NCBI GenBank assembly: GCA_963662795.1
Contig: OY759746.1
Location: 1,792,001 to 1,856,000 of the forward strand
Source: Spirochaetia bacterium
Lineage (GTDB): Bacteria > Spirochaetota > Spirochaetia > CADAEX01
Reading direction: 5' to 3'
Length of the DNA stretch: 64,000 nucleotides
The notes under the pieces: model-generated
What the model was told of the DNA's origin: nothing
Database searches by the model: none
The model's input: only the letters and a program-made list of their open reading frames with translations
Part shown: positions 54,782 to 64,000 of the stretch, piece by piece
Position numbering within the stretch: the first letter of the stretch is position 1
How the letters are laid out: every line of letters starts with the position of its first letter
Program-made: the position numbers and the translations under genes

Positions 54782-55801
54782 GTGGCAGGAATTATATCAG
54801 ACGGAAAAGATATAAAAGTACGCATTCCCTATTCAAGAGAAGCTGTATTAAAACTTCATCAAATTGGCGGAGGCAGATGGAATCCGGAAGAAAAAGTATG
54901 GATTTTCAGCTACAGCAGGGAAAAAGATGCTTTAATCAGGAAGAATATCGGCCCGATATCCTTTTTACCGGATATTGAAACAGAGATTGTAAAACTGAAA
55001 AAAGAACTTGCCTTGAGGGGATACAGCCCTAAAACAGAAAAAGCCTATATAAGTCATGTTGAAAAGCTGCTTAAATTCTGCCGCTCAGAATGGCTCACAC
55101 CAAACCATAAAACCACAGATAAATTTCTATTGGAATTATGTTCAGGCCTAAAGTTGTCCGGCAGTTTCATGAATCAGTTTACATCATCGATAAAATTTTA
55201 TTTCAATAATTGTCTCGGCCGTCCTGATGAAGCAATGCTTCTTCACCGGTATAAAATCGGAAAAAAACTTCCCCCTGTTTTAAGCAAAACTGAGGTTGCG
55301 CTGCTTCTTGATTCTGTAATAAACCTTAAACATAAAACTATTCTGTCGGTAATCTATTCTTCAGGTCTTAGAATAAGTGAAGTGATAAATCTGAAACCGG
55401 GAGATATTGATTTTGATACAATGAATATTCATGTCAGGCAGGGAAAAGGAAGAAAAGACCGCATAACAGTTCTTTCAAGAAAGGCCGCCCAACTGATTTC
55501 ATTGTACAGAGAAGAATATCTTCCTTCTGTCTGGCTGTTCCCCGGACAGATCCAGAGCAGGCACATAAGTGTAAGAAGCGTTGAGGCTGTTTTTGGACGG
55601 GCATTGCTCAAATCCGGAATTGAAAAAGCTGCAACCGTACATACCCTAAGGCATTCTTTTGCAACCCATTTGCTGGAAGGCGGAACAGATATCCGCTATA
55701 TTCAGCAACTCCTCGGGCATAAAAACCTTAGCACAACCCAGATATATACTCATGTATCAAGCTGGAAACTGAAAAATATAGTCAGCCCGCTTGATTGCTG
55801 A
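54782..55801 (+). CDS. Integron-like tyrosine recombinase (SAM-like N-domain; lacks IntI I2 insertion)
   Basis: LRGYSPKTEKAY (SAM_4-like), SGLRISE, GKGRKDR, HTLRHSFATHLLE, LLGH, TTQIYTH; complete catalytic set; sits directly upstream of the cassette array. Confidence 0.9.
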   Translation: MAGIISDGKDIKVRIPYSREAVLKLHQIGGGRWNPEEKVWIFSYSREKDALIRKNIGPISFLPDIETEIVKLKKELALRGYSPKTEKAYISHVEKLLKFCRSEWLTPNHKTTDKFLLELCSGLKLSGSFMNQFTSSIKFYFNNCLGRPDEAMLLHRYKIGKKLPPVLSKTEVALLLDSVINLKHKTILSVIYSSGLRISEVINLKPGDIDFDTMNIHVRQGKGRKDRITVLSRKAAQLISLYREEYLPSVWLFPGQIQSRHISVRSVEAVFGRALLKSGIEKAATVHTLRHSFATHLLEGGTDIRYIQQLLGHKNLSTTQIYTHVSSWKLKNIVSPLDC

Positions 55802-55878
55802 AGCTGAATTCTACGCATAACTGCAGATAAAATTAAATAAATAATTATATCTGCAGTTGTTCATCTATAGTCTTTGAA

Positions 55879-55906
55879 TTGATGTATTACGTATGTATGA
55901 TACAAT
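55879..55906 (+). promoter_or_regulatory. Candidate cassette promoter (Pc-like)
   Basis: TTGATG-16 bp-TACAAT with an extended TG, about 45 bp upstream of the first GTT crossover. Confidence 0.4.
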
Positions 55907-55931
55907 CTAGGCTAAGCTAAAGCAAAGAATC

Positions 55932-55957
55932 ACAACTGCAACTACTAGGAGTTATAC
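55932..55957 (+). other. attI-like primary recombination site
   Basis: GCAACT-ACTAGG-AGTTATAC. GTTATAC (55951) is the exact complement of GTATAAC (56868) that closes cassette 1. No attC hairpin precedes it. Confidence 0.7.
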
Positions 55958-56110
55958 GAAAAACCGCGCCAAGAGGCTACAATTTCGCCCCGGGGAAACG
56001 GGAAAAGCCAGGCGTCCTGCCTGGCTTAAGAAAGAAATAACAGAAAATGGTAATAATTTTTAAAAGTGTGAATTTTGTAGTTTTGGAATAGCTTCAGTTC
56101 TTGAATAGAT

Positions 56111-56139
56111 TTGACTTACACAGCAATATGTGTTAAAAT
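56111..56139 (+). promoter_or_regulatory. vapBC sigma70-type promoter with palindromic operator
   Basis: TTGACT-17 bp-TAAAAT; ACACA...TGTGT inverted repeat in the spacer. Confidence 0.65.
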
Positions 56140-56166
56140 GTACACAAAAGGATTGAGGAGAAAAAT

Positions 56167-56367
56167 ATGGCTACAAACCTTGCAATTGATGATAAATTAT
56201 TAATACTTGCCCAGGGTATTGCTGGAATAAAGACAAAGAAGGATACAGTAAACCTTGCGCTTAAAGAGTTTATTCAGAGAAGAAAACAGGAAGAAATTAT
56301 AGATATTTTTGGCAAAATAGAGTTTGCAGAAGATTATGACTATAAACAAATGAGAAATAGAAAATGA
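56167..56367 (+). CDS. vapB: VapB-family antitoxin (cassette 1)
   Basis: MATNLAIDDKLL...TKKDTVNLALKEFI pattern; overlaps the toxin start. Confidence 0.88.
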   Translation: MATNLAIDDKLLILAQGIAGIKTKKDTVNLALKEFIQRRKQEEIIDIFGKIEFAEDYDYKQMRNRK

Positions 56368-56789
56368 AAATACTTGTAGATACTTCTGTCTGGTCATTGG
56401 CATTAAGGAAGAAAACACTCACAAAGGAAGAGGATAAAATTGTAAGAGAATTAAAGGAATTAATTTATGAACTTAGGGTCATGATAATGGGGCCTATAAG
56501 GCAGGAATTATTATCCGGCTTATCAGATGATGAAAAGTTTAAGATATTAAAGGAAAAATTAAAATCATTTGAAGATATAGAATTGAATCAGGAAGATTAT
56601 GAGAAAGCAGCTGAGATATCGAATAGTTGTAGAAAGAAAGGAATCCAAGGATCACATATAGATTTTTTAATATCAGCAGCAGCATTGAATAGAAATATAA
56701 GTATTTTTACAACAGATAAAGATTTTGAAAATTATAAAAAAATATTAAGTTTGAAATTGCATAAAGTAAGAGAAGAAATAAACAAGTAA
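56364..56789 (+). CDS. vapC: VapC PIN-domain toxin (cassette 1)
   Basis: LVDTSVW, QELLSG, DFLI, FTTDKDF acidic PIN residues. Confidence 0.9.
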   Translation: MKILVDTSVWSLALRKKTLTKEEDKIVRELKELIYELRVMIMGPIRQELLSGLSDDEKFKILKEKLKSFEDIELNQEDYEKAAEISNSCRKKGIQGSHIDFLISAAALNRNISIFTTDKDFENYKKILSLKLHKVREEINK

Positions 56790-56867
56790 AAGGAAAAGAC
56801 CCGCTTTCGTACGTCCTGTACGAAAGCGAAGAGGGGCGAAATTAAGAAAAAGAAGGCGCGGTTCATC

Positions 56868-57050
56868 GTATAACAGCGGATGTTCGGTTTCGGCTGGCGG
56901 GGAGTAAATTATCAAGAAACCCAGCCTTCACCCAAATTGCCTGTCCTATAACCATTTTGATAATTTAAAATATTACGGAAGAGTTTAATCAATAGCTGTA
57001 TAATGCAATTGAATAATCAGGCAACTTCGATCATCCGCGGGACGTTATTT
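56868..57050 (+). other. attC-like site 1 (183 bp)
   Basis: GTATAAC-A-GCGGATG...CATCCGC-GGGAC-GTTATTT. Confidence 0.8.
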
Positions 57051-57305
57051 GCAATACCGCAGATTAGTGATTATGAATTATCTAATTTAGTTCGTGTTTG
57101 TTCAAACATTCCGTGCCCAAGAGGAGCCCGGCGTCCTGCCGGGCTTAAGAAGAATTATAAAATCTTAAACTTACAATAATAAATAGGGAAAATGCTTTTA
57201 GATATTTATTGTAAACTTTTCCAGCAATGTAATAATTATAAAATGAATAATAAAAAGATTGGATCTGGTGTTAAATATTAATAAGAATAAAGGGTAGGTA
57301 ATTTT

Positions 57306-57665
57306 ATGGATAAGTATTTTGAAAGTAAAATAAACAGTAGTATAACAGATCGAAAAAAACTTCATGAAAGATTTGTAAAAGGTTGTAAAACCTATAAAAG
57401 CTTTCTAGAGCTTGAGGAAAGAGCATTTTCTGATAGTGCTTTATCAAGAAAAGTAAAAGAATTAATGGCATTATCAATATCAATAGTAACCAAGTGTGAA
57501 CCTTGCATAGAATGGCATGTGCAACAAGCTTTACTTCAAGGAGCTACAGATGAAGAAATATATGAAACAATAGATGTTTCAATAGAAATGGGAGGAGGAC
57601 CAGCAGGAGCATATGCAAGGTATGCGCTTAATGCAATGGATTATCATAGAGCAAATAAAAGATAA
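57306..57665 (+). CDS. Carboxymuconolactone decarboxylase / AhpD-like protein (cassette 2)
   Basis: ALSRKVKELMALSISIVTKCEPCIEWH (CxxC), GAT.EEI.E, MGGGP. Confidence 0.9.
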   Translation: MDKYFESKINSSITDRKKLHERFVKGCKTYKSFLELEERAFSDSALSRKVKELMALSISIVTKCEPCIEWHVQQALLQGATDEEIYETIDVSIEMGGGPAGAYARYALNAMDYHRANKR

Positions 57666-57946
57666 AAAATGAAATATTGAGATAAACCATTAAAGAATTA
57701 AGCTCCACGATGAAGGAGAGACGATATATTTACAAAAAAAATAAAGCTGTAAGTAGAAAAGTAGTAAATATATGAATATAGGATGAAAATAAAAAGTAAA
57801 TTATTGACTTAAAATAGATAAGAGTGTTATTTGGTACTGCCATGTAAAAAGTATGGGGAGCGCCCCGTTTTCGCCGTCCTGGCTCAAACGGGAAGAAGGG
57901 CACGGGAGGAGGAAGGAAAAGAGGGAATAAATAATTGCGGTACTGC

Positions 57947-58138
57947 AAATAACAGCGATTATTTCGCTGCGCTCCCTGTGGTCGCTTGGGCTCCTGCCAG
58001 TTGAGCTGGCAGATCGCCATATTTTGTTTTCATAAAACCGGAACAACATGTGTTTTATGCTCTTCAAGTTTGTAAAAACTAAATAAAAATATTTTAGAGT
58101 TTAGCCACAAAACATCGAATAATCGCGAGACGTTATCC
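57947..58138 (+). other. attC-like site 2 (192 bp)
   Basis: AAATAAC-A-GCGATTATTTCG...CGAATAATCGC-GAGAC-GTTATCC. Confidence 0.82.
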
Positions 58139-58233
58139 ACAATGCCCCCACAAGATGCAATCGCCCGGACCTCCGGCCGACGGGCGAGGATATGTTGTAC
58201 TAGGTAAGATTTTATTCACTAAAAGGAGTAAAA

Positions 58234-59025
58234 ATGCTATTACCAAATATTGATGAATTAAGAAATCAAAATACGATTTGGCACTATACAAAAGTTGATT
58301 ATGCAATAAAATACATATTGTATGAACTGAAATTACGTCTTTCGCCCGTGGCAAAAAGTATTGATCCAATAGAAAATAGTGGACATGGTATTAATTATTC
58401 TAATTTCAACAAACAAGAAGAAATATCAGATTTTGCCCGTGAATTACGTAATAAATATATTAAACAGTCTCAAAATGTTAAGCAACTATCATTTTGCATG
58501 AATGAATATGCTGATAATAAAATGCATAAAATTGATAAATATGGTTTTATAAAACCTAGAATGTGGGATCAATATGGTGATCATTATAAAGGGGTTTGTT
58601 TTGGTTTTGATAAAAAAAAATTAAAAATCAATGAGGAAAAACAAGTTGCAGGAAAAGTTGTATATTACACATATGATGAATTTATTGGAATTGAGCATTT
58701 TTCAATAAATGCACAAATAACACCAGATATTAATATTTCAGAACCAGAATATATTCAGAATCTTAGTAAGAAATTTAATCAATTATTTTTTAAAAAGCAT
58801 ATTGATTATATTGGTGAAAATGAATACCGAATTATATCGTTTAGCGAAACTGATTTTGATTATATAGATATCGAAAAATCAATTAATTGTATTATAATTT
58901 CAGGTTTTGTAGAATCAAACTATGATTATAGGGTATTAAGAAAGTATGCAAAAAAATTAAACATACCACTTATTCAAATATTATGGATCGGAACAAGTAT
59001 TGATATACAAAGAATAGAAAAATAA
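58234..59025 (+). CDS. DUF2971-like protein (cassette 3)
   Basis: WHYT, DPIE, MWDQYGDHYKGVCFGFD, K...Y..ENEYRII. Confidence 0.75.
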   Translation: MLLPNIDELRNQNTIWHYTKVDYAIKYILYELKLRLSPVAKSIDPIENSGHGINYSNFNKQEEISDFARELRNKYIKQSQNVKQLSFCMNEYADNKMHKIDKYGFIKPRMWDQYGDHYKGVCFGFDKKKLKINEEKQVAGKVVYYTYDEFIGIEHFSINAQITPDINISEPEYIQNLSKKFNQLFFKKHIDYIGENEYRIISFSETDFDYIDIEKSINCIIISGFVESNYDYRVLRKYAKKLNIPLIQILWIGTSIDIQRIEK

Positions 59026-59135
59026 TATTAAAAACAAAGAAATCTAATTTATGCAAGGATAATAATTGCCTGACAGTAAATAAAGTCCAGCCTTGGCTCC
59101 GCCGTGCGGCTTGGACAAGAAGTGGGGGCACTGGT

Positions 59136-59306
59136 GGATAACAGAGGATAATTCGCTGCGCTCGGAGTACCTCGCTTGGCCTGCGGCATATTTTGCTAGC
59201 ATTAAAGCAGTTCATATTCTATTTTACCCTATTTAAATATATTTCCCAAGACTATTACGTTGAAAATGGTTTTAGCAAAACATCGCTTATCCGCGGGACG
59301 TTATCC
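59136..59306 (+). other. attC-like site 3 (171 bp)
   Basis: GGATAAC-A-GAGGATAA...TTATCCGC-GGGAC-GTTATCC. Confidence 0.8.
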
Positions 59307-59424
59307 ACAATGCCCCCACAAGATGCAATCGCCCGGACCTCCGGCCGACGGGCGAGGATATGCAGTAGGAGTAATATACAGTATAATAGTATATGTTAGA
59401 AGAACCATTCGGGCAGAGGAAGAA

Positions 59425-59982
59425 ATGAAAAGAGAACAATTTTTTATATTGATTTTGTCAATATTACTTATTTCCTGCACAAAGATGGAAAACGATGTAA
59501 TTCTATTAGTTCCATATAGTCAACAAGAAAAATTAATTAACTATTTTACTAAAGCCAGTATTAAAGTAAAAATTGATAATTCTTTGATGACAATTTCTTC
59601 TCCTACTGATAATGTATTATTAAACCTTCTTGATTTTCTATTTACCAATATATATTTGAATAAAAGTAATTTAAATAATTCAACTACCACAAGAACTCAA
59701 GATGGATCATATTATAAAAGAAAATATCTTGAAATACTTCCTAATTTAAAATACATAATAAGGGATGATTTGAGTAGTCCAAAGGCAGTATATGACCCAA
59801 CACATCCTGATGCAATTAAAGAAGGTAAAGACAAAGGATATGTATATTATCCAAATATAATTATAGATGATGAGGAAAATGATCTTATCAATAATGTATT
59901 TTTATATAATTCAATTCTTGAATACTTAAAAAGTAGAAACATACCAGTTATGTCTATAGAAATTGATCCAAATAATATATGA
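59425..59982 (+). CDS. Lipoprotein with FlgC-like (flagellar rod) domain (cassette 4)
   Basis: Start MKREQFF with lipobox LLISC; SNLNNSTTTRTQDGSYYKRK and VYDPTHPDAI..G...GYVYYPNI match FlgC motifs. The upstream extension in the ORF track reads through repeat DNA. Confidence 0.75.
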   Translation: MKREQFFILILSILLISCTKMENDVILLVPYSQQEKLINYFTKASIKVKIDNSLMTISSPTDNVLLNLLDFLFTNIYLNKSNLNNSTTTRTQDGSYYKRKYLEILPNLKYIIRDDLSSPKAVYDPTHPDAIKEGKDKGYVYYPNIIIDDEENDLINNVFLYNSILEYLKSRNIPVMSIEIDPNNI

Positions 59983-60041
59983 TGAGTATCATAAATATTT
60001 CTGAAATTGATAGAAATTAATGTTTTTTAAATACAAAAAGA

Positions 60042-60161
60042 CTTCTAACTACTTTTACCTGATGTTTTCTTTGTTACATTTTGTACTGTCGCTTCGCTTC
60101 TGACGCACAAAATGCGCCAAGCCCTTCGGGCACGAAAATACAGATTAAGCAAATGTAAAAT
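60042..60161 (+). other. Degenerate classical-type attC nested within cassette 4
   Basis: CTTCTAAC-tactt-TTACCTG...CAGATTAA-gcaaat-GTA. CTTCTAAC is the exact complement of GTTAGAAG at 59395, upstream of the gene. Confidence 0.6.
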
Positions 60162-60247
60162 TCCAATTACTTAAACAAGGAAATAAGGGAAGAAGTCCGG
60201 CCTTGGCTTCCAGCCGTGCGGCCCGGACAAGAAGTGGGGGCACTGGT

Positions 60248-60439
60248 GGATAACAGCGATTATTTCGCTGCGCTCCCTGTGGTCGCTTGGGCTCCTGCCA
60301 GTTGAGCTGGCAGATCGCCATATTTTGTTTTCATAAAACCGGAAGAACATGTGTTTTATGCTTTTCAGGTTTGAAAAAACCAAATAAAAGTATTTTAGAG
60401 TTTAGCCACAAAACATCGAATAATCGCGAGACGTTATCC
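60248..60439 (+). other. attC-like site 4 (192 bp), near-identical to site 2
   Basis: About 6 substitutions relative to 57950-58138 by manual comparison. Confidence 0.85.
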
Positions 60440-60531
60440 ACAATGCCCCCACAAGAAGACACCGCCCGGACCTCCGGCCGACGGGCGAAGAGAATTGAAT
60501 ACCAATTAAACTACTTAAAAAAGGTAAATAT

Positions 60532-61434
60532 ATGAATGGATTAAATGAAAAAAGTATTTTATTCAAACATTTAGAGGACAATTCTTTACATACGATAAAT
60601 GAATTATATCATTATACAACAATAGAAAATTTCTACAAAATTATTGAAACTAAAACATTTTATATTTTTAATTCTTATCAAATGAATGATTATAAAGAAA
60701 ACTATGTATTGATCGAAAAACTCAAGGAATATTTAAAAAATAGAAATGATATTCCAGAGGATTATCTGAATAAACTTGATGAAACCATAAAGATAAAGTT
60801 TAGATTGAATACACCATATGTGTTTTGTTTAACTGAATTAAATGATTCGTTATCACAATGGAGAGCTTATGGAAATGATGGAAAAGGAATTTGTTTTAAA
60901 ATAGACAGTAAAAAGTTACAAATGAAATATCGTCTGCCTTTTACAGGCGCAGAAAAAGATAATAATTTATCATTACACAATGTAATTTATAATAATGAAG
61001 AGATTAAAAATATCATTGAGAATATTATCAATCAAAGTATTGATTTTGCAAAAACTCGAGATGAAAATATTAGAAATATAGTCTTTGCTGAAACAGCATG
61101 TGCTTTAATGGTAAGATTTAACCCAGTAGTAAAATTAAATGAATTTAAAGAAGAGAAAGAATGGAGAATTATTTACAATCCGGTCTGTATAAAAACCGAC
61201 GGCATTCCATTTAATACTTTAGATAATAATAAAGATATTGGATTTTTAATAACAAATAATAATTTGAGATCTTATTTTAAAATATCATTTACAAGTGATG
61301 AATTTAAAGATATTATTTCTGCTATTTATATTGGTCCTAAAAGTAGAGTAGACGATTATGAAATGCGAATATTATTAGATATTAATGCATTAAAGAATAC
61401 AGAAATATATCGTTCAAATATTCCATATAGATAA
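60532..61434 (+). CDS. DUF2971-domain protein (cassette 5)
   Basis: LYHYT, MNDYKE, DSLSQWRAYGNDGKGIC, FKEEKEWRI, IYIGP, SNIPYR. Confidence 0.85.
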   Translation: MNGLNEKSILFKHLEDNSLHTINELYHYTTIENFYKIIETKTFYIFNSYQMNDYKENYVLIEKLKEYLKNRNDIPEDYLNKLDETIKIKFRLNTPYVFCLTELNDSLSQWRAYGNDGKGICFKIDSKKLQMKYRLPFTGAEKDNNLSLHNVIYNNEEIKNIIENIINQSIDFAKTRDENIRNIVFAETACALMVRFNPVVKLNEFKEEKEWRIIYNPVCIKTDGIPFNTLDNNKDIGFLITNNNLRSYFKISFTSDEFKDIISAIYIGPKSRVDDYEMRILLDINALKNTEIYRSNIPYR

Positions 61435-61526
61435 TTATTTGTATAGGTAGAATAATTAACTGACTGTTTATGAAGTCCGGCCTTGGCTTCCAGCCGTGCG
61501 GCCGGACAAGAAGTGGGGGCACTGGT

Positions 61527-61698
61527 GGATAACAGCGGTTCAAGCGCATCGCTCGGATTACCTCGCTTGGGCTTCGCCAAACATCGCAGGGTTTATGCTA
61601 CAACTTTTTGAAATAACGAGTTAGGAGTAATAAATAATACAGCTTTATGTTAAATAGTCTTGGTCTGCGATGCTTCGCTTAACCGCAGGACGTTATCC
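61527..61698 (+). other. attC-like site 5 (172 bp)
   Basis: GGATAAC-A-GCGGTT(C)AAGCG...CGCTTAACCGC-AGGAC-GTTATCC. Confidence 0.82.
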
Positions 61699-61836
61699 AC
61701 AATGCCCCCACAAGATGCGATCGCCCGGACCTCCGGCCGACGGGCGAAAATTAGTAAACGCAGTTTTATAATTGGAAATGGTAAGCACTTTTTCCCCAGT
61801 CATGGAAAGGAAAAGTACCCCACCTAGTGAAAAAAA

Positions 61837-62568
61837 TTAGCTCTCCTTTTTATTTGAAATTCTATATGAATCTCCCGCGAGGGAGAAAACATGTGCATGA
61901 TGCAGCAGTCTGTCCAGCAGCGCTGTTGTCATTACTTCGTCCCCAAGCATTTCCGCCCAGGAATCAAAACTTTTGTTAGATGTTATGATAATTGATGTGC
62001 GTTCATAAAGTTCACTCACCAGCGAAAAGAATAAATTGGCCTCTTTTCGGTCAATAGGTGTGTAGCCTATTTCATCGATGATCAAGACATCGGACTTCAT
62101 GATTCGATTGAGCCTGAATGTACTCGAGCGCTGAACATCCATTGTTTTCAGTAGCTTCACCAGTGATGTGATTCGCTCAAAGCAGACCTTATACCCTTTC
62201 TGAATTGCCTCATAACCAAGTGCAATAGAAAGATGAGTTTTCCCTATTCCCGGAGGTCCAAAGAAAAGAAGATTTTCCTGTTTATCTATCCAAGTGAAAT
62301 CGAGAAGATTTTTAAGCTGTAATTTGTTTATACCTTCCAGCCTATTTATATTAAAATCTTCAAGAAGTTTTATTACCGGAAAATGAGAGCCTGCAAGGTT
62401 GCGTCTCAGCCTGCGTTCCATCCGGTAGGAGATCTCTTTTTCCAGAAGAGTTTTAAGGAACTCAAGATGTGAAATTTCACTTTCAACATTCACTTCATTT
62501 AATGCTTTTGATATCCCCTGAAGTTTTAAGTTTTCCAGCACTCCGGTACAATAATCGAGCGTTTTCAT
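61837..62568 (-). CDS. istB: IS21 helper ATPase IstB
   Basis: GPPGIGKTHL, LIIDEIGY, IITSNK, LLDRLLHH, GDSYR. Confidence 0.95.
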   Translation of the reverse strand: MKTLDYCTGVLENLKLQGISKALNEVNVESEISHLEFLKTLLEKEISYRMERRLRRNLAGSHFPVIKLLEDFNINRLEGINKLQLKNLLDFTWIDKQENLLFFGPPGIGKTHLSIALGYEAIQKGYKVCFERITSLVKLLKTMDVQRSSTFRLNRIMKSDVLIIDEIGYTPIDRKEANLFFSLVSELYERTSIIITSNKSFDSWAEMLGDEVMTTALLDRLLHHAHVFSLAGDSYRISNKKES

Positions 62569-64000
62569 AAAGCTCCTCCGATTATGCTGACCAGCGAACT
62601 ATAATAACTAAGCTTCCTTTGAACAACTTTTGGATTTCTTAAATCTGCTTTAACAGCCTGAATTCCGGTTATTAGTTTAGGGAGAATATTATCATGTAAA
62701 TCTTCAGTAACACCTTTTACATATGCATACGCTTCTTCAAGATTCATGGCGCTGCATCCCCCTGTTTCTTCACACACGATAAGGGCCTTTGAAAGTAGCT
62801 CAACATCATAGCCGCCGGATAGAAATTTACTTAAACTTGAATGCTGTTCACGAAAATAACGGGTGTAACGCCGATAGTTTTTCTGAACAAATTCCTCCCA
62901 ACCGGGAGCTGTAACTTTTTCAAGTAACTCATCTCGAAGCTGTGTTTGTTTAACAGAATTATCTTTAAAATGATTCTTTTTCGATATTATCTGTCCAGGA
63001 AGTACTGAGCGTGCGTGATGAGCAATTTCTCTTCCAGCCAATTCATCATAAATGAATAATTCATTCTCTGATCTATAAATCCAGACGGTTTTACGCCGGT
63101 ATGAAATAGGCACTGAATATTTACAGGAATCTACACTTATGAAACTTTTTAGATCTACTTTACGATCTTCCCGCTCAAGAATGGAATCTCTTTTAAACAT
63201 TGAAGCCCGCAAGGGCTTGAGTTTCTCTTGTTCCTTTTTAAGCAGGTTTGCAGGAATTATTCCGGTTGCTTGAGATATTTTCCCGTTTGCTGTTCTCACT
63301 ATCCATGAAGAGAGCTTTGATTGAACATCTTCGAAATCATCAAAGGTTCTCGCTGAAAAAAAACTTGTCTTTACGAACTTAACGAGATTTTCTACCTTTC
63401 CCTTGGATTCCGGATCTGCTTTTCGACAGACATATAGCTCAAACTGCATTTCATCTTGAAATTGGCTAAATGATTTTGTGAGAATAATATCCCCGCTGTT
63501 TTCACTGACAATCAGGGTCCGGTCCTGATCAATTACTATCTGATGTGGTATGCCACCTATGTACTCAAAACAATCAAGAAGATGTAAAATTACATCCAAT
63601 GTTGTAAACGGACGTTGCTGTACTGCAACATATCGGTATCTGCTTGCAGAGAGCACTGATGCAAAGATATAGACGGTCTCTCCAGTGTTTATCTTTAGCT
63701 GGCCAAAATCAACCTGCAATTGTTTTCCAAACGGCAGTTCATCTACCGGAGTATAGGACCTATATAGCGGTGATGTAAGAATTCCACCTGTTCTTACCAG
63801 ATATGAAATATAATTTCTCAAAGTACGGGGTGTTCCCGGAAGATTCTCCTCCCCGTATTTTTCCTCCAGCAAATCATAGACTGAAGACGAATATACCTTG
63901 CTTTCATTCAGCCGGTAAATCTCAATGACTTCGTCTCTGAAGGGTTCGAAGACTTGTTCTTTTTTATGAGCGATTTTTTGATACTCAACATATTTTTCAG
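62565..64000 (-). CDS. istA: IS21 transposase IstA (5' end outside window)
   Basis: QLQVDFG, DQD, DPESKGKVEN, YSVP; the frame stays open from 63872 to the window edge; 4-bp overlap with istB. Confidence 0.93.
   Translation of the reverse strand, partial: EKYVEYQKIAHKKEQVFEPFRDEVIEIYRLNESKVYSSSVYDLLEEKYGEENLPGTPRTLRNYISYLVRTGGILTSPLYRSYTPVDELPFGKQLQVDFGQLKINTGETVYIFASVLSASRYRYVAVQQRPFTTLDVILHLLDCFEYIGGIPHQIVIDQDRTLIVSENSGDIILTKSFSQFQDEMQFELYVCRKADPESKGKVENLVKFVKTSFFSARTFDDFEDVQSKLSSWIVRTANGKISQATGIIPANLLKKEQEKLKPLRASMFKRDSILEREDRKVDLKSFISVDSCKYSVPISYRRKTVWIYRSENELFIYDELAGREIAHHARSVLPGQIISKKNHFKDNSVKQTQLRDELLEKVTAPGWEEFVQKNYRRYTRYFREQHSSLSKFLSGGYDVELLSKALIVCEETGGCSAMNLEEAYAYVKGVTEDLHDNILPKLITGIQAVKADLRNPKVVQRKLSYYSSLVSIIGGAL

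Follow-up and report, generated by a model that had tools for sequence, protein, structure and literature searches.

The analysed window is a stretch of 64,000 nt from a Spirochaetia bacterium (GenBank assembly GCA_963662795.1, contig OY759746.1, positions 1,792,001 to 1,856,000 of the forward strand; this genome is called G000 below), and positions given without further mark are those of the window. It contains part of a long array of repeats, termed shells, that is headed by the gene of a tyrosine recombinase. The subject of this report is one unit of the array, shell-level cassette 4, in which a predicted lipoprotein gene is followed by an imperfect hairpin of about 120 bp. An initial annotation, made from the letters alone, had taken gene and hairpin for a cassette of a conventional integron that was captured inside cassette 4 and whose own attC (the recombination site of a cassette) is decaying. 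According to the analysis described here, 59396–60155 is probably a conventional integron cassette, composed of the lipoprotein gene and an attC of ~120 nt, that is docked in the outer cassette 59301–60254 of a second array system. The features of the locus are listed below; a slash within a motif, as in G/TT, marks the junction.

54782–55801, + strand: IntI-like tyrosine recombinase heading the shell array (profile matches, alignment)
59084–59354, + strand: upstream shell repeat, 1 of 198 copies in the array, consisting of 5' module, L-arm, central linker, R-arm and 3' module
59301–60254, + strand: shell-level cassette 4, arm to arm, from TTATCCACAATGCCCCCAC... to ...GTGGGGGCACTGGTGGATAAC (limits of its duplicate, arm complementarity)
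59355–59395, + strand: type-2 tail, candidate docking site (conservation stops at G 59395 of GTT)
59396–60155, + strand: nested cassette of probable conventional integron type, beginning TTAGAAG... and ending with the G of R' (homology with metagenome contigs L179 and L180 from G/TTAGAAG)
59425–59982, + strand: cargo gene, 185 aa, predicted lipoprotein (MKREQFFILILSILLISC...) with a FlgC-like C-terminal segment (open reading frame and profile match)
60042–60161, + strand: attC of the putative nested cassette (covariance model R1, 63.0 bits, E 5.6e-11)
60156–60193, + strand: spacer between the attC and the next shell, assigned to the right side of the docking site (platform comparison across units)
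60194–60490, + strand: downstream shell repeat, whose 5' module and L-arm (AAC 60252–60254) close cassette 4

The upstream shell closes cassette 3 with the AAC of its L-arm at 59142 and opens cassette 4 with its R-arm, the G of which is at 59300, and its 3' module occupies 59330–59354; cassette 5 is opened by the R-arm G at 60433 of the downstream shell. Cassette 4 is thus bounded by complementary arms of ~20 nt (GTTATCCAC...GCCCCCAC at the start, GTGGGGGC...GTGGATAAC at the end) that lie within shells of ~310 nt. A 98% duplicate was found 49 kb downstream (genome 1,900.5 kb), with an identity of 88–100% per 50-nt bin that is confined to ~59283–60281, i.e. from GTT 59300 to AAC 60254. Because the duplicate is cut at the arms, the outer unit is real and includes the nested cassette with all its defects, and the placement inside a shell cassette, as initially annotated, is upheld. 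The same arm-cut duplicate shows that the outer cassette still carries the nested one along when it moves.

The hairpin behind the cargo gene

The cassette start GTTAGAAG at 59395–59402 has its exact reverse complement (8 of 8 nt) in CTTCTAAC at 60042–60049, and the hairpin region that follows holds TTACCTG, CAGATTAA, the pair CATTTTGT and ACAAAATG, and GCCC-TTC-GGGC. Its 3' end reads CAAATGTAAAAT (...CAGATTAAGCAAATGTAAAAT), in which the G at 60155 is followed by TA and not by TT. The flanking pair, the motifs and the GTA end had all been pointed out before and were confirmed by direct reading. In terms of attC boxes, R'' is CTTCTAAC at 60042–60049, L'' lies at ~60052–60061, L' is CAGATTAAG at 60141–60149 and R' is GTAAAAT at 60155–60161. 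R'' has the core RYYYAAC, aligned with AUAUAAC in the covariance model described below and with T instead of R at the first position, and it is complementary to the start of its own cassette; R' departs from the core GTTRRRY with its crossover G/TT.

The 8-mer pair alone is weak, since 1–8 of 33 control 8-mers (ten offsets) also have a downstream reverse complement in their unit, and the hairpin alone folds weakly, with -13.7 kcal/mol (z -1.35, 19 of 200 shuffles as good) for the top strand and -15.7 kcal/mol (z -1.64, 13 of 200) for the bottom strand. The weak fold and the chance rate of such pairs would be compatible with a terminator, a REP-like repeat or a small RNA element flanked by a fortuitous GTTAGAAG and CTTCTAAC pair, an explanation to which almost no probability is given here in view of the family to which the hairpin belongs.

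For the 209 nt 3' of the cargo gene, a 97% copy was found at genome 1,901 kb and partial copies of 78–79% elsewhere in the region. Iterated nhmmer searches yielded 26–27 sibling sites, all on the + strand and between 1.85 and 2.15 Mb, with a left end ...(A/C/T)TAAC, a right end GTTA... and a stem between them. From 22 of the siblings, with this attC and its duplicate excluded, a covariance model termed R1 was constructed. Over both strands of the 64-kb window it matched 60035–60166 in full length with 63.0 bits (E 5.6e-11), which was the sole match below E 0.1. The sibling stem carries compensatory changes in 14 of 17 pairs, 87.9% of its cells are paired (61.4% in shuffles, of which 0 of 500 reached this value; 27–44% with the partners slid), and its covariation score is 0.717 as against 0.242 in shuffles (again 0 of 500). 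As the model match is independent, the pair of cassette start and R'' recurs and the family covaries, pair and hairpin are more than chance, and by its family context the hairpin is a real attC. The terminator or repeat explanation is further opposed by the full length of the R1 match, by the confinement of the family members to one strand of one array, and, as set out in the next section, by arrays of the same family beside IntI in relatives, a cassette boundary common to the window, L179 and L180, and an IS110-family element within the L180 copy of the site.

A search of the 64 kb against Rfam gave nothing at the gathering threshold; five chance-level matches (E up to 10) were returned in 55700–61900, none of them on the hairpin. 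A promoter and terminator scan of 58900–60600 found no terminator and 8 promoter-like sites against 7.5 expected, none of which lies in the tail, and on these grounds a reading of TATAAT in the tail as a promoter was dropped.

The cassette and its attC family in other genomes

The metagenome contigs L179 and L180 encode the cargo protein at 77% and 70% amino acid identity, respectively. In both, homology with the window starts at G/TTAGAAG (G/TTAGAAGG), and directly upstream of this start, where the window has the tail, stands the right half of an ordinary attC (83.7 bits in L179, 37.9 bits in L180). L179 has four attC matches within 3.5 kb, and no shell sequence was found in either contig. 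The same cassette is thus present in other arrays, behind ordinary attCs and with the same start, as expected of a mobile cassette, and its proposed descent from a conventional integron is borne out. In L180, R'' reads GACTTCTAAC, as in the window, and is followed by the AACTG spacer of the family; this attC is interrupted just after L'' by an IS110-family transposase gene (L180 780–2143). One IS110 subgroup, IS1111-attC, targets attC sites. Environmental sequencing runs X1 and X3 contain copies, at least 85% alike, of the shell modules and of 60047–60156, without the cargo gene.

R1 matches 21 of the 61 genomes of the class (G000 included). In four of these (G005, G008, G011 and G057), dense arrays of this attC family adjoin an IntI of 375–400 bits (cut-off 265), and a shell-type recombinase with shell fragments is found at a separate locus; beside these fragments the recombinase gene is intact in G011 and G057 and carries a stop in G005 and G008. 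Since the family forms arrays beside an above-cut-off IntI, it is an attC family of conventional integrons in these spirochaetes, and the existence of two cassette systems, between which the initial annotation had supposed gene flow, is confirmed in relatives. The conventional intI of G000 is a pseudogene (genome C1 412,089–413,302, corresponding to L040 1219–2432) with a frameshift near 412.9 kb and two TGA and one TAG in its second part. Upstream of this gene is an IS30-like fragment; it is not accompanied by an attC array, and the R1 search of G000 detected no attC of the family outside the shell array.

The cargo protein matches TIGR01395 (FlgC) at E 1.6e-9 with 38 bits, below the cut-off of 102, and its residues 111–166 match FlgC genes of ~152 aa in 44 of the 61 genomes, G000 among them. 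Its N-terminus carries what we take to be a lipobox, and on this basis it is called a lipoprotein; it could be a decoy or modulator of flagellar rod assembly. A homologue of 40% identity in G011 was set aside as uninformative on the cassette, being an ordinary chromosomal copy without attC or shell beside it. Another homologue, 43% identical, is found in metagenome contig L182 (1330–2260) directly between two long sites that read ...CACCTAAC/AGCGG...~190 nt...GGAAC/GTTGGGCG...; the interior of these sites resembles one shell linker type, and they have neither the outer modules of the shell nor a classical attC. Many conventional cassettes of this attC family begin GTTAxxxxGACCCTTCGGGCAGAGGA, with a small GC hairpin with a TTCG loop just before the ribosome-binding site; this element was seen in the window at 59403–59417 (degraded), in L179 at 1467–1481, in L180 at 112–126 and at genome positions 1954230 and 1955340.

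Tails, docking and the state of the attC

Directly behind the shell 3' module, 33 tails were found in G000, all on the + strand and all in the array: 26 of type 1 (~65 nt) and 7 of the shorter type 2, the class of cassette 4. Conservation stops at a GTT, right after which the sequences diverge; the junction reads GTT in 7 of 7 type-2 and 22 of 26 type-1 tails, and ATT or GGT in the other four. The 8-mer at the GTT has an exact downstream reverse complement within the unit at 19 of the 33 tails, compared with 1–8 of 33 at ten control offsets. Of these complements, 14 stand at the left end of an attC detected by nhmmer, and two more (units 2111593 and 2156785) at R1 matches. Altogether, 32 R1 matches (E<=1) fall in 28 of 197 units, and in every such unit the last attC starts 55–160 nt before the next shell. 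Two attCs are present in four units, and in the one of these that was checked the second R'' (GTCTAAC) complements the first R' (GTTAGAC). The same platform recurs with different cargo. In the shell array of G011, which belongs to another genus, the first cassette consists of the tail, then GTTATATGATC, then GATCATATAAC at an attC (R1 27.8 bits). What had been annotated as a single capture is instead one instance of a regular docking architecture.

The tail appears to behave like attI, the docking site of conventional integrons, in an analogy that is one of behaviour only. It is conserved to the left of G/TT and variable to the right, has no stable hairpin (-3.5 to -10.1 kcal/mol, z -0.0 to -2.9) and is used repeatedly for different cassettes, units with two cassettes included. 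Unlike an attI, which is a single copy adjoining intI, it is present in 33 copies inside mobile units, none of them beside a recombinase gene in G000. The sequence 3' of the G/TT of the last attC tracks the L-arm type of the following shell in other units, and the spacer is therefore counted as part of the platform. The pattern is what repeated insertion by attI x attC exchange would leave. For cassette 4, a circular conventional cassette would have recombined at G/TT with the attI-like tail behind the shell 3' module, giving a left junction tail-G/TTAGAAG and a right junction attC-G/(T)TA.... Both junctions, the membership of the attC in its family, the recurrence of the architecture and the presence of the same cassette in conventional arrays elsewhere can be read from the sequences compared here; the insertion itself may be ascribed to an IntI-type recombinase, the candidates being the conventional IntI, now a pseudogene in this genome, and the IntI-like enzyme of the array.

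Several observations weigh against a docked conventional cassette. R1 is a family-specific model derived from this genome's own sites and is distinct from the general attC model of IntegronFinder. The flanking pair that had been expected in homologous cassettes is kept in L180; in L179, R'' (GAGACTAAC) matches the cassette start over 5 nt only, and its site is truncated further in. Neither contig keeps the right half of its attC, so that the suggested search for homologues recovered the cassette behind ordinary attCs and no version with an intact GTT. Searches of G000 with five short patterns turned up no empty docking site, and neither did a search of the 61 genomes with one strict gapped pattern, which allowed no mismatch and is hence a weak probe. 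No similarity was seen between the tails and the sequences near intI in the conventional integrons of the four relatives, the comparison giving only shell-motif matches in shell loci; likewise, compared with the region of the intI pseudogene of G000, they showed no similarity beyond such matches. Type 2 is the less well supported of the two tail classes: of its five distinct units, an attC was detected by the model in cassette 4 alone and an R''-like complement in one other. The right side of cassette 4 (TAAAATTCC...) resembles no other platform. Lastly, the four sequencing runs consist of contigs in which the joints are other repeat copies, and excision is neither shown nor excluded by them.

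Compared with L180 and the siblings, the attC of cassette 4 is without 3 nt between R'' and L'' (gap after AAC). Three of its 17 pairs are non-standard, L' contains a mismatch, and GTA stands where R1 has GUU. In the sibling comparison its bottom strand folds with -15.3 kcal/mol (z -2.3), the sibling median being -23.0, and 17 of 22 siblings are more stable. These features make it likely that the attC is decaying, as the initial annotation had it, and GTA, the shortened spacer and the weak fold together suggest a copy that is no longer usable; the part of the claim that ties GTA to decay is tempered by a second possible origin of this triplet, discussed below. GTT is kept in 22 of 28 nested attCs in G000 and in 85 of 88 attCs in conventional arrays of three relatives with intact IntI (Fisher p 0.006, for sites that are kin and not independent and include one duplicate pair), a difference that fits relaxed constraint after loss of the integrase. 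One relative of this site in X1 continues ...GT/TAGAAAG and so has an intact GTT, but it is a related site and does not belong to this cassette.

GTA would also result if the cassette had been inserted at a non-canonical secondary site, G/TA; the junction would then never have been GTT, and the cassette would have been fixed in place upon insertion, without any decay. In attI x attC exchange the target supplies the bases that follow the G at the right junction, one other unit (start 2008566) also ends ...ATTGTAAATTAC, and the peculiar right side of cassette 4 would agree with an unusual target. This course of events is nevertheless considered unlikely: the junctions of the tails are GTT in the great majority noted above, the 3-nt deletion and the L' mismatch are defects unrelated to the junction, and siblings read GTTAAAATT, from which the loss of one T would yield the observed GTAAAATT. 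An empty platform is expected to read ...TATATGTT... if the attC has decayed and ...TATATGTA... if insertion took place at G/TA.

The shell array and known integrons

The shell array comprises 198 repeats of ~310 nt and 197 cargo units over 332 kb, all on the + strand (genome C1 1,848,850–2,180,720; window part 55951–61830). The recombinase at its head reaches 200 bits against TIGR02249 (cut-off 265), the match being split into two stretches; its best NCBIfam match is NF040815 with 214.5 bits (cut-off 220), and in Pfam it matches PF00589 and PF13495. It is 37% identical to the bona fide IntI of G011, with gaps where the IntI-specific extra domain stands, and so lacks the integron-specific additional domain that defines IntI; the nearest named records are from Spirochaetia metagenome-assembled genomes. 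Within each shell the L-arm terminates in AAC and the R-arm begins with GTT, and across the array the arms fall into about 13 covarying types. The R-arm before a gene and the L-arm after it are perfectly complementary in 71 of 109 informative cassette pairs, the two arms within one shell in 21 of 117; random pairs reach at least 12 of 14 in 10% of trials. The central linker (~140–178 nt, e.g. 60255–60432) is of about five types, which assort independently of the L-arm (0.11 vs 0.10) and of the R-arm, its two halves staying linked. As the linker assorts independently of both arms, the moving unit of the shell system seems to extend from arm to arm without the linker. The array accordingly departs from the rule that a recombination site travels with its upstream cassette, the linkers being independent and the duplicate ending at AAC.

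In all attC-bearing units the last classical attC starts 55–160 nt before a shell, and shell arms and classical sites have the core ATAAC/GTTAT in common; both would also be expected if there were one system only, an ordinary integron array beside whose attCs the shells had inserted as mobile or regulatory elements of their own, with nothing nested. On the other hand, a classical attC is present in only 28 of 197 units, and most 90-nt stretches upstream of shells show none. Arm complementarity spans the cargo and not the shell, so that a shell does not travel as a whole, and the duplicate ends at the arms. In relatives, the two systems occupy different loci and have a recombinase each. A single system is for these reasons judged very improbable.

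The docked cassette of 59396–60155 can be placed in a wider scheme, which is put forward tentatively and is regarded as possible but doubtful. In such a second-tier system, mobile platforms with attI-like sites would capture conventional cassettes, the captured attC would decay, and the gene would then be re-mobilised from arm to arm by a recombinase without the IntI domain. Conventional integrons would feed genes into the 332-kb array in this way, and cassette 4 would have been caught half-way. The scheme predicts that the cargo family should be found directly between shell-type sites, as is seen in L182.

The nested unit shares with integron cassettes of the Spirochaetes type an R'' ending in TCTAAC, a start TTAGAAG complementary to R'', L'' and L' with an unpaired spacer, and an imperfect hairpin of ~120 nt; its attC family is also taxon-specific and found in arrays beside IntI in related genomes. 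Taxon-specific attC models, with Spirochaetes among the taxa, are described in one study (PMC8352920), and attC lengths of 63–132 bp are given for Treponema in another (PMC3607928). The nested unit differs from an ordinary integron cassette in that R' is GTA, that its place is within a cassette of a second system instead of an attC-to-attC array next to an intI, and that the intI of the genome is broken. It resembles cassettes that are fixed at secondary sites or fused, in which a defective downstream site leads to a permanent part of the surroundings; in the present case, however, what surrounds the cassette can itself move as a cassette and has a dedicated docking site that recurs across the array. 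Insertion of cassettes at secondary sites has been part of the integron literature since the 1990s.

The shell array in turn resembles superintegrons of the Vibrio type in being very large and one-directional, with similar repeats, mostly single-gene units and a tyrosine recombinase at its head. It differs from them in its repeat of ~310 nt and in a recombinase that has no IntI extra domain and whose gene is co-oriented with the array, and from a classical attC array in that the middle of the repeat is linked to neither of the cassettes that flank it. The literature that was searched, which was limited in reach, contained no description of a shell-type array, of cassette-borne attI-like sites or of nested cassettes.

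Integrons are the textbook device for collecting and shuffling genes and are viewed as one integrase, one attI and one array. The locus departs from that view, as its attI-like sites are multiplied (33 copies), carried in cassettes of a second array system and loaded with cassettes that circulate in ordinary integrons. It offers a concrete route by which genes may pass between two cassette economies, a natural series from intact to decayed attCs in a genome with a dead conventional integrase, and a handle on a 332-kb array whose recombinase falls outside the definition of integron integrases. To search tools that rely on IntI and attC, the locus would appear as no more than scattered attC clusters, and the architecture would escape them.

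Some further observations were made on the array. Of 141 shells without a classical attC, 23 are immediately preceded by a mini hairpin, CAGGTAGAATAATTACCTG, which often has ...CAGTTTA behind it (e.g. 59058–59076 and 61447–61465) and may be a reduced site or a terminator. The commonest R-arm (e.g. 59301–59309) contains TTATCCACA, which we take to be the DnaA-box consensus; of the 107 perfect copies in the genome, 62 belong to the array and are found on its + strand. DUF2971 proteins (PF11185, E 9e-11 and 6e-14) are encoded by both neighbours of cassette 4, shell cassettes 3 and 5 (58234–59025 and 60532–61434). After cassette 5, the array is broken into by two minus-strand open reading frames at 61837–63998, presumably an IS21-type pair of transposase and ATPase helper, the latter with GPPGIGKT.

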